A stretch of DNA of 64,000 bases from an uncultured Clostridia bacterium (GTDB taxonomy: Bacteria; Bacillota; Clostridia; Christensenellales; CAG-917), in NCBI GenBank assembly GCA_944363035.1, contig CALVTS010000001.1, forward strand, positions 64,691-128,690, read 5' to 3'. Positions 16,160-38,697 of the stretch are shown here, piece after piece; within the stretch, counting starts at the first letter, position 1, and each line of letters starts with the position of its first letter. The notes beneath the pieces were generated by a model. It made no database searches. It had not been told where the DNA came from and saw nothing but the letters and a program-made list of their open reading frames with translations. A program made the position numbers and the translations under genes.

Positions 16160-16522
16160 GGGGGTGTACCGGCTTCGACAGTCGGTTTGAGACGGGGTAA
16201 GCATGCCGCAGGCTCGTCTGCGTCAACAACGGAAATAAAAAATAAACGCGAAAAATACGCAAAAGAACTCCACCATGGAGTTCGCCCTCGCTGCATAATT
16301 TAGTCAGCGTGTCGCCCTCGGGTTTTCTGTTCCCCGAGCAAGCGGCATCATAAAAACAGACAACGCGGTCCCATCGCCCGGTAAGACCGCTGTCATCACG
16401 GGCTAGTCGATCCGAGGCTCGCCGCCGTGCCGAAGTGAGAGACCCCTAAACGTCGGATAAGCATGTAGAAATCACCGCCAACGGCCGGTTGGACCGGGGT
16501 TCAACTCCCCGCACCTCCACCA
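16160..16522 (+). ncRNA. ssrA: tmRNA (transfer-messenger RNA)
   Basis: 5' GGGGGUGUACCGGCUUCGACAG and 3' GGACCGGGGUUCAACUCCCCGCACCUCCACCA. 7-bp acceptor stem with a G3:U pair, T-arm and CCA encoded. The internal tag frame ends ...FALAA-TAA (tentative tag AKNTQKNSTMEFALAA). Confidence 0.95.
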
Positions 16523-20541: not shown

Positions 20542-20641
20542 GTGAAGCGGGAGTGACGTATGCACCGCAAGTCATCAGACTTTTCGTCCGCGAGCACCCC
20601 CCGTCTCCACGGCACTTGACGCGCATATGTCTACAACTTCC
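20542..20641 (-). promoter_or_regulatory. THF (tetrahydrofolate) riboswitch, class I
   Basis: Minus strand: GAAGUUG-UAG-ACAUAUG-CGCGUCAAGUG-P3(CCGUGGAG..CUCGCGG, loop GGGGGUG)-ACGAA-P4(AAGUC ugau GACUU)-GCGGUG-CAUACGU-CACUCC-CGCUUC. All helices, the conserved joining strands and the loop/CACUCC pseudoknot match the known THF-I architecture. Confidence 0.8.
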
Positions 20642-33374: not shown

Positions 33375-34916
33375 ATGATAAAAGAAGGTTACGTGAGAAA
33401 GGACGCGTCTCTCTTTGTGGGCGCCGAACGTCCCAAGCTCCCGCCGCGCACGATAGAGGTCTCCAAAAAGGCGATCCTCATCTCGGTGGTGATAGTGCTG
33501 GTGCTGGTCATCGCGTCCATAGTGCTGACGCAGGTGCTCCCGCGCGGCGCGTACGAACGCGGCACGGACGCGGACGGCAACGAATATATCGTGGAGGATT
33601 CCTACCGCGAGGACGAAAGTCTGCCCTCCCTCAAATGGTGGCAAGCCGTATTCGCGCCCGTACTGGTGCTGGACCCCGGGATGGACGGCTCCCTCATGGT
33701 GTGGGCGCTCATCGCCCTTCTCCTCGTCATAGGCGCGGTATTCACCGCCCTGGACAACACGGGAGTGCTGGTCTATATGGTGGAATCTCTGCGCAACCGC
33801 TTCAAGGGCAAGAAATACGTCCTGCTCTTCCTCCTCCCCTTCGCATTCATGTTCCTGGGCTCTTCGGCGGGGATGTTTGAGGAACTCATCCCCCTCGTCC
33901 CCGTGGTGGTGCTCCTCTGCTACGCGCTGGGCTGGGACGCGCTCGTCGGATTGGGCATATCCGTCCTGGCGGCGTGCTTCGGTTTCGCGGCAGGGGTGGT
34001 GAACCCGTTCACGGTGGGCATCTCCCAAAACCTCATGGGCATACCGATGTTCTCGGGGATAGAGATGAGACTGCTCACTTTCGTGGTCGCCTACATCATC
34101 CTGATGGCGTTCATCTTCCCGTACGCGCGCAGGATAGAAAAGAAACCTCAGGTCTCCCCCGTCTATCTCGAGGACACCCACAAAAAACACGGCTTCGACT
34201 TCGCCAACACGGATTTCGTATATGACGAGGGCAAATCAAAAGCTCTGAAATGGTTCGCGTGCTGGATGCTCGCCGTGGTCGGCATCGCGGTGCTCTCCAT
34301 CTTCATACAACCCACCTACATCCCCGAGCTCGGGGATTTCGCCCTCGCGGACTATGTGCTCTACATCACCGTGGCGATATACGTCGTCGCGGGCATAGGC
34401 GCGTGCGTGATGTGCGGATTGAAAGGCAAAGCGCTCTTCACCCAACTCGCCAAAGGGCTGGTCACCCTGCTCCCCGCCGTCGCCATGATACTCATCGCCA
34501 GCGGAGTGCGCTACATCATGGAATCGGGCAGCGTGATGGACACCATACTCTACAAGGTCATCGCCGCCTGCGAAGGACGCTCGCCCGCAGTCATCATACT
34601 GCTTGTCTATCTTGTCATCTTCGTCTTCGAGATGTTCATCCCATCGGGGTCGGCAAAGGCGTTCCTCCTCATGCCGATGATAGGCGCGATGTGCTCCCAG
34701 CTCGGGGTGGACGGTCAGGTGGCGGTGCTCGCCTTCGCGTTCGGGGACGGTTTCGCCAACGTGCTCCTGCCCACCAACGCGGGACTTTTGCTCATCCTGG
34801 GCATGACCACGGTCAATTATCCCAAGTGGATAAGGTGGAGCGGTCCCATACAGCTCACCCTCTTCGCCGCCACCGTAGGCATACTCATGCTGGCGCAATA
34901 CGTGATATACGCCTGA
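33375..34916 (+). CDS. YfcC / C4-dicarboxylate-anaerobic-carrier-family membrane transporter
   Basis: 513 aa. A single N-terminal TM, then an extracytoplasmic loop and a polytopic core (FLGSSAGMFEELIPLVP...GFAAGVVNPFTVGISQ) as in YfcC-type carriers. Confidence 0.75.
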   Translation: MIKEGYVRKDASLFVGAERPKLPPRTIEVSKKAILISVVIVLVLVIASIVLTQVLPRGAYERGTDADGNEYIVEDSYREDESLPSLKWWQAVFAPVLVLDPGMDGSLMVWALIALLLVIGAVFTALDNTGVLVYMVESLRNRFKGKKYVLLFLLPFAFMFLGSSAGMFEELIPLVPVVVLLCYALGWDALVGLGISVLAACFGFAAGVVNPFTVGISQNLMGIPMFSGIEMRLLTFVVAYIILMAFIFPYARRIEKKPQVSPVYLEDTHKKHGFDFANTDFVYDEGKSKALKWFACWMLAVVGIAVLSIFIQPTYIPELGDFALADYVLYITVAIYVVAGIGACVMCGLKGKALFTQLAKGLVTLLPAVAMILIASGVRYIMESGSVMDTILYKVIAACEGRSPAVIILLVYLVIFVFEMFIPSGSAKAFLLMPMIGAMCSQLGVDGQVAVLAFAFGDGFANVLLPTNAGLLLILGMTTVNYPKWIRWSGPIQLTLFAATVGILMLAQYVIYA

Positions 34917-35054
34917 CGGACAGGAGGAACAAAAGAACCCGAAACCACGCTCCCGAACGCATTTTGTGGGATATCCTTTCCTGCGGTGTTGACTGCGGCG
35001 GAAAATTGCCCCATAATATAATGTGAGGTCGCTTATCGGTCTCACGGAGTGGAT

Positions 35055-35582
35055 ATGGAACTTGCTCTCAAAGCCAAAAAAAGAAATTTCATCTTCGCTG
35101 TCGTGCTTACGGTGGCGCTCGCGGCAGGCATACCCTGCATAGTGATGGGCGCGATAGGGCTCAAACCGCCAAGCCACGACAACGCGGGATATATAGTCCT
35201 CCTGACATTCGGCATAATATGCGTGGTGGCGGGGTTTTACGGCTCGCCCATCGCGTGGTCACGTCTCGCCATCCTCAATCAGGAGCTCACCCTCGTGAAA
35301 GCGGTCACGGAGGAACACCTCCACACCGTGGCGGACCTTGCCCAACGGCTCTCCGTCAACGGGAAGACCGCTTCCGCCACACTCAACAACTGCATAAGAA
35401 AAGGATACCTCGTGGGATTCATCCGCGAAGGAGACGCCCTCGTGCTCAACGAAAACCGCGCCCTAGCCCCCACCGAATATACGACGGAATGCGCGCATTG
35501 CGGGGCGACGGTCACCCTGCAAAAAGGCGAAAGGAGCAAATGCCCGTACTGCGGCTCCCCCCTCTCTCTCCCCGAAAAATAA
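35055..35582 (+). CDS. membrane-anchored protein with winged-helix-like segment and C-terminal zinc ribbon
   Basis: ATG at 35055 with GGAG 5 nt upstream. 2 TM helices (FIFAVVLTVALAAGIPCIVMGAI, YIVLLTFGIICVVAGFYGSPIAW). HTH-like LHTVADLAQRLSVNGKTASATLNNCIRKGYLVGF. CxxC...CxxC (CAHCG...CPYCG). Confidence 0.7.
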   Translation: MELALKAKKRNFIFAVVLTVALAAGIPCIVMGAIGLKPPSHDNAGYIVLLTFGIICVVAGFYGSPIAWSRLAILNQELTLVKAVTEEHLHTVADLAQRLSVNGKTASATLNNCIRKGYLVGFIREGDALVLNENRALAPTEYTTECAHCGATVTLQKGERSKCPYCGSPLSLPEK

Positions 35583-35602
35583 TAACACCCCCAAAATGTC
35601 GC

Positions 35603-35632
35603 AAAAGCCGCTCGCCCGAGCGGCTTTTTTGT
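35603..35632 (+). terminator. rho-independent terminator
   Basis: AAAA-GCCGCTC-gccc-GAGCGGC-TTTTTTG. Confidence 0.8.
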
Positions 35633-35643
35633 TGTATGCTACG

Positions 35644-35804
35644 TTTTACTCCCACGTGAACTTTTTCGGGGCGTGCTTGACTCACACATAAACCCATTCG
35701 GAGTGGAGCCTGAACTTTACGTTTCTTTTCGGGGTGTGCTCGATTCCCACGTACACTTATTCGGAGTGTGCTTAAACACGACGTACACTTATTCGGAGTG
35801 GAGC
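35644..35804. repeat. left arm: 5 contiguous 30-33 bp units
   Basis: Units at 35644-35676, 35677-35709, 35710-35739, 35740-35771 and 35772-35804, e.g. TCGATTCCCACGTACACTTATTCGGAGTGTGC. They are the reverse complement of the right-arm units. Confidence 0.9.
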
Positions 35805-36536
35805 CGCCTAGCCAAACTTGCACAGGGCGTAGCCCTCTTGCAAGTCGGCGGCGACGAAGTGAGTGCCGAGGGCGAGACGTAAAGTGCGTCGGCAATGCGC
35901 CATTCTCTTCGCGAAGCGGGCGCATTGCAAGCGGCATAACATGGCGGCGCCGCAGAGGCGCCGTCCTCGGTAGCCCTCATGCCCGAGCGCCGAAGGTTTC
36001 CCCCAAAATGGTGGGTTCCCTTTTAAGGGGGAACGATTTTGGGGGAAACCCGCAGGAAGGGGGCAAAAATATTTCCCTGTCGCGGGGACGTAACCCTCAA
36101 ATTAAATTAGATTGAATCCCACGCACACTTATTCGTCGAGTTCGGGGACGCTCTGAATAAGTTTACGTCGTATTCAGGCTAGTTTAATGGGGTATACGTC
36201 CCCTAATATGGTAATATTGCTCCCCCTCCTCCCCTTCGGGACTCCTCCCCCACTCGGAATAGAGGACTGTCCTCCTAAAATGCGGGATATACTTTTTCAT
36301 AAAGGCGCATTCTGCGCCTTTATGAAAACACCTCTTGAAAAAGGTTTGAATCTCGCACTTGCATAATCAAGCGGATACCAGTATAGACTGAACGTCGCTC
36401 GCGGGGCGAGGAGGGCGACTCGACGCGCACCGAGCCCGTGTCTACTTAATTATCCGTCTAGCTTGCGAGGTCGCAGATACGCGCCGCGACTTGCAAGAGC
36501 GGGCGCAAACGCCCGCTGTGCAAGTTTGGCTAGGCG

Positions 36537-36731
36537 GCTCCACTCCGAATAAGTTCACGTGAAGTTCAAGCACACTCCGAATAAGTATACGTGGGAGTCA
36601 AGCTCCACTCCGAATGAGTGTTCGTGGGGTTCAAACACGTCTCCGAAAGAGAGACGTAAAGTTCAGGCTCCACCCCGAATAAGTGCACGTGGGAGTCAAA
36701 CACGCTTCGGACGAGTGCACGTGGGGTTCAA
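36537..36731. repeat. right arm: 6 contiguous 32-33 bp units
   Basis: Units at 36537-36569, 36570-36601, 36602-36634, 36635-36666, 36667-36699 and 36700-36731. Consensus GCTCCACTCCGAATAAGTGCACGTGGGAGTCAA alternates with a diverged variant, giving a period of about 65 bp. Confidence 0.9.
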
Positions 36732-36879
36732 AATTGTCCTCACCCAAACGCCTGTTGAAAACGTCGCCATTTGGATGCAGAATGCGAAAGCGCCCCTGTC
36801 GAGAGGCGGAGCTTACTTGATAGTAAGTGAGCATCTACGGCAGGGACGCTGACAAAGTTCTGCGCCAAATGGCGGCGTT

Positions 36880-38697
36880 TTAGGATTTTTTGGATTGCAA
36901 CTTCAACCTCTCACTCCCCGACAACACCAACTTGCGTATGCGCAGATGTTGGGGGGTGACTTCGAGCATTTCGTCGTCGTTGAGGAATTCGAGGGATTCT
37001 TCAAGGCTGAATTTGCGGGGGGTGTTGAGGCGGAGGGCTTCGTCGGAGCCTGCGGCGCGCATATTGGTGACGTGTTTGCGCTTGCAGACGTTGACGCGGA
37101 TGTCTTCGGCTTTGGGAGACATCCCGACCACCATCCCCTCGTACACCATGGTCTGCGGGTCGATGAACAGGGTGCCGCGATCCTGGGCGTTGAAGAGCCC
37201 GTAAGTCGCCGCCTCACCCGTCTCGAACGCAACGAGCGACCCCGTGAATCTGCGCTGGATGGGTCCCTTGTAAGGCGCGTATCCTTCGAAGAGCTGGTTC
37301 ATGACGCCCTCCCCCTTGGTGTCGGTGAGGAACTCGTTCTTGAACCCGAACAGCCCGCGTGAGGGCACGATGAATTCCATCCTTATGCGGCTGCCTTTGG
37401 GCTCCATGGTGACGAGCTCCCCTTTGCGCACTCCCATGCGCCCCATGACCGACCCCACGCACTCCGAGGGGACGTCGATGAACAGCCTCTCCATGGGCTC
37501 GCATTTTTCGCCGTCTATGGTGCGGAAGATGACCTGCGGAGTGCCCACGCCGAATTCGTATCCCTCGCGGCGCATGGTCTCGATGAGGATGCTGAGGTGC
37601 ATCTCTCCCCTGCCGCACACTTTGAAGGTGTCCGGGCTGTCCGTCTGATAGACGCGCAGGGAGACATCCTTCAACAGCTCGCGGAAAAGTCTGTCGCGGA
37701 GTTGTCTGGACGTGACATACTTCCCCTCCTTGCCCGCAAACGGGCTGTCGTTGACGGAGAAGTTCATTTCTATGGTGGGCTCGCCTATCTTGACGAAGGG
37801 GACGGGATCTATCTTGCCGGGGACGCAGAGGGTGTTGCCTATCGTGATGTTCTCAATGCCGCTGAAACACACGATGTCCCCCACTTCCGCCTCCTCGACG
37901 GCGGCGCGCTTCAAGCCCTCGATCTGGAAAAGGGTGACCACCTTGCTCTTGTAGGGCGAGAGCCCGGTATAGTCGCACACCATGACCTCTTCGCCCACCC
38001 CGATCTTGCCGCGCTCTATCTTGCCGATGCCTATGCGCCCGACGTAATCGTTATAGTCTATGGCGGACACAAGCAGTTGCAGATCGCCGTCGGGATCTCC
38101 CTCGGGAGGCTCGATGTAGTCGAGTATGGTCTCGAAAAGCGGAGTGAGATCGGTGCCCGGGACGTTGTAGTCTCGGGTGGCGGTGGCGTTCTTGCCGGAG
38201 CAATAGAGGATGGGGCTCATGAGTTGCTCGTCGTCCGCGCCGAGGTCGAGCAAAAGTTCCAGCACCTCGTCCCCCACCTCAGAAAGTCTGGCGTCGGGAC
38301 GGTCTATCTTGTTGACGACTATGATGATCCTGAGCCCGAGTTCCAACGCCTTTTCCACCACGAATCTGGTCTGAGGCATGGGACCCTCAGCCGCGTCCAC
38401 CAAGAGGATGACCCCGCTCACCATTTTGAGCACGCGCTCCACCTCGCCGGAGAAATCGGCGTGTCCCGGGGTGTCGATGATGTTGATCTTCACTCCCCCC
38501 CAATGCACGGAGGTGTTTTTGGCAAGGATGGTGATGCCGCGCTCGCGTTCGAGCGCGCCGGAATCCATGACGCAGGTCTGCACCTGCTGATTGTCACGGA
38601 AGGTGCCCGACTGACGGAGCATACCGTCCACCAAGGTGGTCTTGCCGTGATCGACGTGAGCGATTATTGCGACGTTTCTGAGGTCATGTCTTATCAT
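36880..38697 (-). CDS. typA: translational GTPase TypA/BipA
   Basis: Trimmed to [31 protein letters not shown]...[16 protein letters not shown]...[10 protein letters not shown]. Confidence 0.95.

Follow-up and report, generated by a model that had tools for sequence, protein, structure and literature searches.

A repeat-filled gap between convergent genes

The window analysed here is a stretch of 64,000 nucleotides from an uncultured Clostridia bacterium. It contains a 1.24-kb gap (35640-36882) between two convergent genes, and the neighbours of this gap encode DcuC, a Zn-ribbon protein, BipA and a cation-efflux protein. Per-base blast coverage against the bacterium's own genome shows that the entire gap is made of repeated DNA and that its flanks are unique. 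A blast search of the locus against this genome (1.61 Mb in 30 contigs) returns more than 200 matches, with the individual modules across the gap present in 20–80 copies. Altogether, the genome carries about 60 copies of a junction hairpin, referred to as J, and 344 units of 32 nt, all of which are intergenic. Read in its own sense, an element consists of tandem 32-nt units, a core, J, a body of about 300 nt (B or D) and a terminal unit at the 3' end. The parts of the locus are as follows.

35603..35633, plus strand: intrinsic terminator of the upstream Zn-ribbon/wHTH gene (ORF end 35582); left border, outside the repeat, with blast coverage of 0 up to 35639
35640..35805, plus strand: left array of about five tandem 32/33-nt units in sense orientation, consensus TTGAATCCCACGTACACTTATTCGGAGTGTGC
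35787..35825, plus strand: left arm of the perfect 39-nt inverted repeat, comprising the last unit, the type I core and the 5' arm of tier 2
35804..35852, plus strand: left junction hairpin J, type I, with tier 1 GCCGCC/GGCGGC, loop TAGCCAAA, tier 2 CTTGCA/TGCAAG and tier 3 AGGGC-GTA-GCCCT
35853..36113, plus strand: body B, belonging to the left (L-type) element and present about 23 times genome-wide, with a nested hairpin at 35995-36050
36084..36203, no strand assigned: central 120-nt long hairpin formed from the 3' ends of both elements, running from GGGGACGTAACCC through a forward unit (36114-36135) and a reverse unit (36151-36179) to GGGTATACGTCCCC
36114-36179, convergent: the two facing units at the centre of the composite, 23 nt apart
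36181..36479, minus strand: body D, belonging to the right (R-type) element and present about 45 times genome-wide
36294-36328, minus strand: nested 35-nt palindrome inside body D, with a copy number of its own that exceeds that of body D
36480..36538, minus strand: right junction hairpin J, chimeric, with (in sense) a type I core on the 5' side, type II tier 3 AGCGGGCG-TTTG-CGCCCGCT and type II 3' arm GCGGCGCG
36516..36554, minus strand: right arm of the perfect 39-nt inverted repeat, identical to the left arm once reverse-complemented
36536..36735, minus strand: right array of six units of 32/33 nt at a tandem period
36740..36882, minus strand: module F, a 140-nt long hairpin with about 20 copies, starting in the bipA stop codon (TAA, 36880-36882, minus strand)

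The gap is occupied by a composite of an L-type element on the plus strand and an R-type element on the minus strand, placed head-to-head and meeting in the central 120-nt hairpin. This hairpin has a predicted fold of -52.1 kcal/mol (z -5.3), and the same centre is found in at least 13 composites. The arrangement of body B, a unit, a facing unit and body D (B>u><u<D) recurs at least 13 times in the genome, beside solo and tandem forms. Reverse-complemented D and B have their 5' junction and last ~55 nt in common. Module F is predicted to fold at -62.3 kcal/mol (z -6.1). It also rewrites the end of bipA, replacing the final codon and the stop codon. A scan of the region returned one promoter-like site, which is weak and lies outside the bodies. 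Additionally, a mutual-information test of internal pairing in the 32-nt units gave no clean stem, the signal being dominated by heterogeneity of the downstream sequence.

The family is a non-coding, gene-free, modular mosaic repeat whose modules have been reshuffled. The original prediction had treated the locus as a singular element with a special core; this view is not supported, as the J found here belongs to a repeat family that extends across the genus and is represented in this genome by about 60 junction modules. Many contigs end inside family repeats. The composite architecture has been assembled at least 10 times in this genome, and again in independent MAGs and metagenome contigs. 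A genome self-blast aimed at multi-copy insertion sequences yielded lipoprotein paralogues and additional families of non-coding repeats, and nothing else. The arrays face outward toward genes at 55 of 65 cluster edges. The outward neighbour presents its 3' end in 33 cases and its 5' end in 22, a difference which is not significant even after gene re-calling by GC3 and which depends on crude gene calls. If this reading is correct, several per cent of a small 1.6-Mb gut genome would consist of a structured modular repeat system. In practice, the repeats interrupt MAG assemblies and give genes 3' ends that are specific to a lineage.

The junction hairpin and its covariation

Two hairpins framed by CTTGCA and TGCAAG had been proposed beside the inverted core, and both lie exactly where they were placed. 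The left one runs from CTTGCA (35817-35822) through AGGGC-GTA-GCCCT to TGCAAG (35839-35844), and the right one from CTTGCA (36490-36495) through AGCGGGCG-CAAA-CGCCCGCT to TGCAAG (36519-36524). A third, outer stem had been overlooked, GCCGCC (35804-35809) pairing with GGCGGC (35847-35852), and the right copy has its equivalent. J is accordingly described as a three-tier hairpin of 50–66 nt, whose internal loop is asymmetric and consists of TAGCCAAA on its 5' side and TC on its 3' side. The minimum-energy folds computed with ViennaRNA consist of these three tiers in both copies (-29.0 and -34.1 kcal/mol, z about -2.1). J is not an intrinsic terminator; both hairpins lack a following T-run, and the terminators returned by the scan are confined to 35603-35628 and 35884-35900.

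The claim that pairing is preserved while the sequence changes is borne out by 120 distinct copies, in which about 93% of the pairs are formed, compared with 27–50% in a slid register. These copies were placed in model-guided alignments and scored on the stored structure, the slid control being obtained by shifting the 3' partner. In the first alignment (A3; 40 distinct sequences), 92.7% of positions are paired vs 27–50% when slid, double changes occur at 11 of 23 pairs, and the covariation score is 0.243 vs 0.059 after shuffling, a value reached in 0 of 500 shuffles. The second alignment (A4), which excludes the window's genome and holds 72 distinct sequences, gives closely similar figures: 92.9% vs 27–49%, double changes at 11 of 23 pairs, and covariation of 0.241 vs 0.070 (0 of 500). 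The shuffle control ignores the relatedness of the copies and overstates significance, and more weight is given to the slid-register control and to the replication in A4. The test for compensatory change, for which an alignment of further copies and orthologues had been suggested, is clearly positive in both sets. Moreover, RNAalifold recovers tiers 1–3 by itself. In all three stems of J, pairing is thus maintained by compensatory change, both between copies and between species.

The three tiers differ in the way they vary. Among the 120 pooled sequences, tier 2 exists in four variants (CTTGCA/TGCAAG, CTTTCA/TGAAAG, CGTTCA/TGAACG and CGCTCA/TGAGCG), and tier 3 in at least 30 paired variants, including AGCGGGCG/CGCCCGCT, CGTGGGCG/CGCCCACG, AGGCGGTG/AACCGCCT and AGGGC/GCCCT. 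No variation is seen in the five inner tier 1 pairs, in the CCAA of the loop or in the CAC that follows tier 2, and the unpaired loop (Y)NAGCCAAA is nearly invariant across copies. With 120 distinct hairpins and more than 30 stem variants, the J family represents a rich natural covariation data set.

The mismatched pairs carry information on the strand. Among the non-Watson-Crick cells of the alignment, 32 are G:U and 3 are A:C, corresponding to 10 vs 2 distinct pair/type events. A series from G:C through G:U to A:U can be followed from AGCGGGCG/CGCCCGCT via a form in which CGCCTGCT replaces the 3' arm to AGCAGGCG/CGCCTGCT. The excess of G:U therefore points to folding of one defined strand, in the direction from array through J to body, rather than to a symmetric cruciform or to neutral maintenance of a palindrome. 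The expectation of a structure recognised as a cruciform or an RNA hairpin is thus upheld in part only: the symmetric cruciform is disfavoured by the 32 G:U against 3 A:C, and a polar single-stranded hairpin, of either RNA or single-stranded DNA, fits better.

Palindrome symmetry can also persist by templated repair at the DNA level without selection. On this basis, the J hairpins might be functionless palindromic junk, their symmetry being due to quasi-palindrome templated correction or gene conversion and their apparent covariation to a few subfamily founders. Many identical or near-identical copies are indeed inherited within subfamilies, gene conversion among copies is clear from chimeras, and a match to a known RNA family is absent. 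However, at least 30 inner stems and 4 outer stems are all paired, the G:U intermediates fall on one strand only, which templated correction does not predict, and the unpaired CCAA and CAC are invariant across species while the stems vary. Furthermore, the covariation is replicated in independent genome sets. A junk origin is accordingly considered unlikely, and a J without function is given the same low probability. If the contrary reading is true, selection would clearly act on the hairpins to fold as a single strand, and this in a bacterial group with scarcely any account of REP/BIME-type biology.

Origin of the perfect 39-nt inverted repeat

The exact inverted core that drew attention to the locus is real. 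The sequence ACTTATTCGGAGTGGAGCCGCCTAGCCAAACTTGCACAG is present twice in the window without a mismatch, at 35787-35825 on the plus strand and 36516-36554 on the minus strand, and a second match is not expected by chance (0 in 100 shuffles). It constitutes the inner part of a longer inverted repeat of 88 nt with 90% identity (35738-35825 / 36516-36603). The stronger divergence attributed to the flanking units is also observed, the outer 32/33-nt units being 62–79% alike.

The interpretation of this core depends on the alleles of J. The genome contains 21 type I junctions, about 35 type II junctions and 4 chimeric ones. A type I J reads ...CTTATTCGGAGTGGAGCCGCC[T/C]AGCCAAACTTGCA-CAGGGCGTAGCCCTC-TTGCAAGTCGGCGGCGAC, has a short inner stem and is followed by body B. 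A type II J reads ...CTTATTCGAAGACGGTCTCACGCGCCGCTCAGCCAAACTTGCA-CAGCGGGCGTTTGCGCCCGCTC-TTGCAAGTCGCGGCGCGT, has a long inner stem and is followed by body D or by a third body. On the 5' side, the two types have only 15 nt in common, namely GCCAAACTTGCACAG. The inner stems of the window's two hairpins are the two commonest J alleles of the genome, types I and II, and the right copy is the sole type I core found on a D body. In the three other chimeras, a type I core is joined to an inner hairpin of type II and to body B (C1:160112 and C1:217436), or a core of type II to a hairpin of type I and to body D (C5:107455).

When the window's pair is set beside the 13 other convergent J pairs (n = 14 in all), its exceptional position becomes apparent. 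The perfect inverted repeat ending at CAG spans 39 nt here vs 13–17 nt in the others, and the ungapped identity over 88 nt is 79 here vs 30–37 (maximum 60). The last 60 nt of the right arm are identical to the left arm of the copy at C13:7895, and the best matches of the whole 225-nt right arm are L-type arms. Because the right copy is chimeric and the other convergent pairs have only 13–17 perfect bases, the 39-nt identity is assigned to recombination or gene conversion. The sequences thereby indicate a by-product of exchange among family copies and not a specially conserved core. Of the two explanations originally offered, recent homogenisation agrees with a right copy whose type I core sits on a hairpin and body of type II, and selective maintenance is contradicted, as the identity is a recombinant junction which is found at no other convergent pair.

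The chimeric junction is known from one assembly, and its exact sequence has 0 matches in metagenome contigs. Inverted repeats about 690 bp apart also resemble invertons, and the repeats of this family break many contigs; the region could on these grounds be an invertible 690-bp DNA switch, or its 39-nt identity an artefact of assembly. Both ideas are highly improbable. The 1-kb composite occurs at least 13 times with only 13–17 perfect arm bases, a recombinase gene is absent among the neighbours, and the interior consists of two repeat bodies with no promoter cassette, the single weak promoter-like site being outside the bodies. An assembly chimera at the right junction also appears unlikely, because the overlap of the types is only 15–25 nt and the locus lies inside a 257-kb contig; the 15 nt shared by the types at the breakpoint, or 25 nt when the other chimeras are included, fall below the usual length of final assembly k-mers.

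The explanation preferred here combines a modular repeat family, a recombinant 39-mer and a J that acts as a folded single strand, and it is regarded as probable. Two copies of the element converge head-to-head, the 39-nt inverted repeat being their J regions. Through recombination or gene conversion, the right, type II element has gained a type I core, and one breakpoint lies within the shared GCCAAACTTGCACAG. This exchange at the right J produced the perfect 39-nt identity at the window locus alone.

Distribution, possible roles of J and related systems

The family is restricted to a narrow lineage. By blast, it is present in 12 of 15 Candidatus Limadaptatus genomes and in 0 of 26 genomes that represent other genera of the same family and order. 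The covariance model of J is matched in 9 of the 15 genomes of the genus, with 8–106 matches each, and the J copies of the genus number more than 400. A pattern scan over one genome per species returned MAGs under two labels only, uncultured Clostridia bacterium and Candidatus Limadaptatus stercoripullorum. Candidatus Limadaptatus is a Candidatus taxon from the chicken gut (PMC8035907). The family is also found in human-gut metagenome contigs, some of which are long and deeply covered. Within the genus its distribution is patchy, since the genome most distant by BipA identity (G011) is J-positive and several closer genomes are J-negative. An exact-protein look-up of the upstream gene in other assemblies gave 0 records, and a literature search on repeats in the genus Candidatus Limadaptatus found no paper.

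The locus itself is polymorphic. Three genomes (G003, G004 and G011) have a gap of 100–310 bp between the Zn-ribbon gene and bipA with an ordinary bidirectional terminator and no element. Three others (G002, G008 and G012) carry an extra ORF of 544 aa between the Zn-ribbon gene and bipA, and a short gap without element downstream of bipA. In G007 and G013, module F, units and J follow bipA, with F docked in the same way. Finally, G005 has one element in the gap, in sense orientation, between the stop codon and the terminator, and its J contains a nested hairpin within the CCAA loop. The Zn-ribbon/wHTH neighbour was considered as a cognate binder of the repeats, and a specific link is unlikely, the gene being syntenic in the three genomes with the empty gap.

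These arrangements bear on the molecule in which J would fold. Under the preferred explanation, J would fold as a single strand of defined polarity from array through J to body. This strand would most likely be RNA made during transcription of the element, which might come about by read-through from a neighbouring gene. J may then provide a stable handle, structural or for protein docking, at the 5' border of the structured body. The RNA reading is favoured because the G005 element sits between stop codon and terminator in the sense of the gene, because the F hairpins start inside stop codons in the same sense, and because the arrays face outward toward genes at most cluster edges. Against it count the weak orientation bias relative to flanking genes (33:22) and the finding that J is not a terminator. 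On balance, J is somewhat likely to act as RNA. Action as single-stranded DNA during mobilisation is a plausible but less probable mode.

In kind, the element is a bacterial interspersed mosaic repeat, and the nearest known systems are BIME/REP-REPIN and pneumococcal BOX. It is set apart from both in that it forms composites of kilobase size, carries terminal arrays of tandem 32-nt units and has a conserved three-tier J with a sequence-invariant loop. BIME/REP clusters are known from enterobacteria and Pseudomonas, together with REPINs and their RAYT transposases (PMC3116915, PMC3337134, PMC3733652). The likeness includes high-copy, gene-free intergenic hairpin mosaics of alternating orientation, often between convergent genes; head-to-head doublets that form long hairpins; a single-copy RAYT-like Y1 gene in the same genomes; and a lineage-restricted, largely vertical distribution with differences in copy number. 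The high copy number and the extragenic, alternating clusters typical of REP are found here (about 60 J, 344 units and at least 13 composites in 1.6 Mb). Nevertheless, REP sequences measure 20–40 nt, whereas the present family has tandem 32-nt arrays and bodies of about 300 nt combined into kilobase composites. J has no GTAG/CGTC head, and the consensus of the 32-nt unit is without the tag. The host is a Gram-positive gut Clostridium, and the RAYT-like gene is flanked by another palindrome, named P, and not by J or units. A cognate RAYT gene flanked by the same repeat in inverted orientation was not found in the 8 genomes with P flanks.

The BOX elements (boxA-(boxB)n-boxC), RUP and SPRITE of Streptococcus pneumoniae are of debated function and are transcribed within transcription units (PMC3049150). 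Like BOX, the present family is a modular Firmicute repeat with variable tandem sub-units, strong folding, an intergenic or 3'-proximal location, reassorted modules and no ORF. Compared by description, it differs in having its tandem sub-units at the 5' end and not in the middle, bodies 3–6 times larger, two body types and the three-tier J, and no sequence relation to BOX, RUP or SPRITE is evident in the same comparison. IS200/IS605 elements and their ORF-less derivatives (PATEs) have strand-specific, imperfect subterminal hairpins with conserved unpaired bases, and their non-autonomous copies outnumber the enzyme gene. J resembles them in being a strand-specific imperfect hairpin with conserved unpaired bases whose copies outnumber the enzyme gene. 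Unlike IS200/IS605, where the ends are two different hairpins, the ends of the present element are direct copies of the 32-nt unit, and an autonomous copy with J at its ends was not found.

Other classes can be compared more briefly. An inverton is not indicated, the neighbours being without a recombinase and the interior consisting of repeat bodies. The layout, which was the only aspect compared, is not that of a CRISPR array; the units abut at a period of 32–33 nt with no spacers. Rfam models searched over 34500-38000 at permissive thresholds gave only chance-level matches (mir-373 at 30 bits vs 69; others with E >= 0.35), and a window-wide Rfam scan returned only tmRNA and a THF riboswitch.

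The single-stranded DNA reading can be tied to a candidate enzyme. J would then be a recognition hairpin, similar to those of IS200/IS605 or REP, for an HUH/Y1 transposase that moves or amplifies the elements, with module swapping as a by-product of cleavage and joining. The candidate is the genome's single RAYT/TIRYT-like protein, which matches PF01797 and has an HUH motif (HAH), a YIHNNP motif and a C-terminal HTH; its gene, at C1:192893-193663, is single-copy and its top NCBIfam match is 'REP-associated tyrosine transposase', albeit at 65.6 bits, below the curated cut-off of 80. Y1 enzymes such as IS608 and TnpA-REP read an unpaired loop next to the foot of a hairpin, and J has a conserved asymmetric unpaired loop in this position. 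The family is mobile or polymorphic and strand-specific, and all 4 chimeras break at hairpin borders, where modules swap. The Y1 gene is present in 8 of 9 J-positive vs 1 of 6 J-negative genomes, a co-occurrence which is confounded by shared ancestry. In the window's genome, a unit array begins 8 nt past the Y1 stop codon and an inverted R element lies upstream; this is the only genome with unit arrays on both sides of the gene. Moreover, the heptamer GGGGACG, an invariant box of the palindromes flanking the transposase gene, recurs in the 3' ends of the bodies and at the composite centre.

However, several observations speak against this assignment. The ~70-nt P palindrome with its GGGGACGG box borders the Y1 gene on either side in 8 other genomes (G002, G003, G005, G006, G007, G008, G012 and G013), and there is no J or unit within 1.5 kb. 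P tracks the gene better than J does, the gene being present in 7 of 7 P-positive genomes, whereas G011 has 17 J copies and no Y1 match and G006 has the Y1 gene and no J. As for GGGGACG, it is common in coding DNA (727 copies) and is no more conserved in the bodies than its neighbours. As a shared recognition box, it therefore counts as no more than a lead, suggestive and not discriminating, being common genome-wide with flanks that are equally conserved. A reverse transcriptase was also rejected as a partner, since PF00078 is confined to G000 and G006, a pattern which does not follow that of the family. The recognition of J by the Y1 enzyme is for these reasons a minority reading, tentative at best. 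The RAYT/TIRYT-like transposase nonetheless offers a directly testable candidate enzyme.

A broader scenario, which is speculative and rather unlikely, takes the CCAAAC loop of J, invariant beside freely varying stems, as a putative docking site for a trans-acting enzyme in a layered, self-propagating repeat system. Its layers would be the GGGGACG-headed palindromes, the 32-nt arrays as landing pads, the hairpins docked on stop codons and the ~300-nt bodies assembled as kilobase mosaics. The enzyme would be an HTH-bearing Y1 protein (RAYT/TIRYT), or spread would take place at the RNA level. The whole might amount to a Gram-positive REPIN-like system of unprecedented complexity.

With regard to the transposase itself, TIRtrons consist of a Y1 transposase with an HTH (TIRYT) between long inverted repeats (Di Nocera et al. 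2013, PMC3733652), and the Y1 gene of this genome is likewise bracketed by dispersed palindromes of about 70 nt. This likeness belongs to the P family and not to J; the two are linked only by the GGGGACG heptamer and by physical clustering. The partner of the enzyme indicated by the sequences is accordingly P, in a TIRtron/REPIN-like system (PMC3733652), and its link to J is only a lead. In the window's genome, the P family comprises 28 dispersed hairpins.

Nested palindromes and the 3′ end of bipA

Palindromic segments were located within the junction hairpin J of the mosaic repeat family, within body D (a module of about 300 nt in the right-hand repeat element) and beside bipA, as follows:

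Window 36294-36328: perfect 16+16-nt palindrome, TTTTCATAAAGGCGCA-TTC-TGCGCCTTTATGAAAA, inside body D
Genome G005, contig C1 (locus L022), some 700-760 nt ahead of the stop codon of bipA on the reverse strand: J hairpin with a nested 40-nt hairpin (GGAGCCCCGCAAAAAATC..GATTTTTTGCGGGGACTCC)
Window 36740-36882: hairpin module F

The palindrome at 36294-36328 is more numerous than body D, with 36-40 blast hits compared with about 21-28, and the G008 version of this body lacks it. On these grounds the palindrome looks like a mini-insertion in its own right, with a terminator-like, bidirectional shape. In G005, the J hairpin occupies the orthologous site, and the nested 40-nt hairpin is inserted exactly within its conserved CCAA|G loop. 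Module F starts within the bipA stop codon and supplies a new last codon and stop, such that BipA ends in ..KNKS* or ..KKS* in genomes with the module, whereas it ends in ..KNKQ* in those without it. The stem sequences of F vary by species while their pairing is kept (CTGACGCTCTCATTTGG / CTGACGGTGTCATTTGG / AAAACGCCGCCATTTGG).

Distribution of the J family and Rfam matches

With a BipA identity of 85%, no genome is more distant than G011 (Ca. Limadaptatus stercoripullorum), yet the genus-wide search found 17 copies of J in it and zero copies in G004, G006 and G010 (90-91%) and in G001 (87%). This patchy distribution suggests several losses or horizontal spread of the family. In an Rfam scan of the whole window, only two features exceeded the gathering score:

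Window 16160-16522: tmRNA gene (146.7 bits)
Window 20543-20641: THF riboswitch (59.7 bits)

Y1 transposase gene, P palindromes and other coding features

Further coding features lie in the window's own genome, G000:

C1:192893-193663, beyond the window: gene for a RAYT/TIRYT-like Y1 transposase, present as a single copy
C4:104187-104798: reverse-transcriptase (RVT_1) ORF, open frame of 550 aa
C3:99738-102782, C7:24541-27960 and C11:11368-13479: three large paralogous lipoproteins

The Y1 transposase carries an HUH motif, YIHNNP and a C-terminal HTH. In eight genomes of the genus its gene is flanked on either side by P palindromes of about 70 nt, in which the GGGGACGG box is invariant and the stems are species-specific. 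G000 contains 28 palindromes of this family, mostly paired, with about 237 nt between partners, and members of the family adjoin two of the three lipoprotein paralogues. Apart from these paralogues, whose N-terminal repeats are acidic and rich in Gly and Asp, G000 has no long coding repeats. Within the genus, the RVT_1 ORF shows no correlation with the repeats and occurs in G000 and G006 only.
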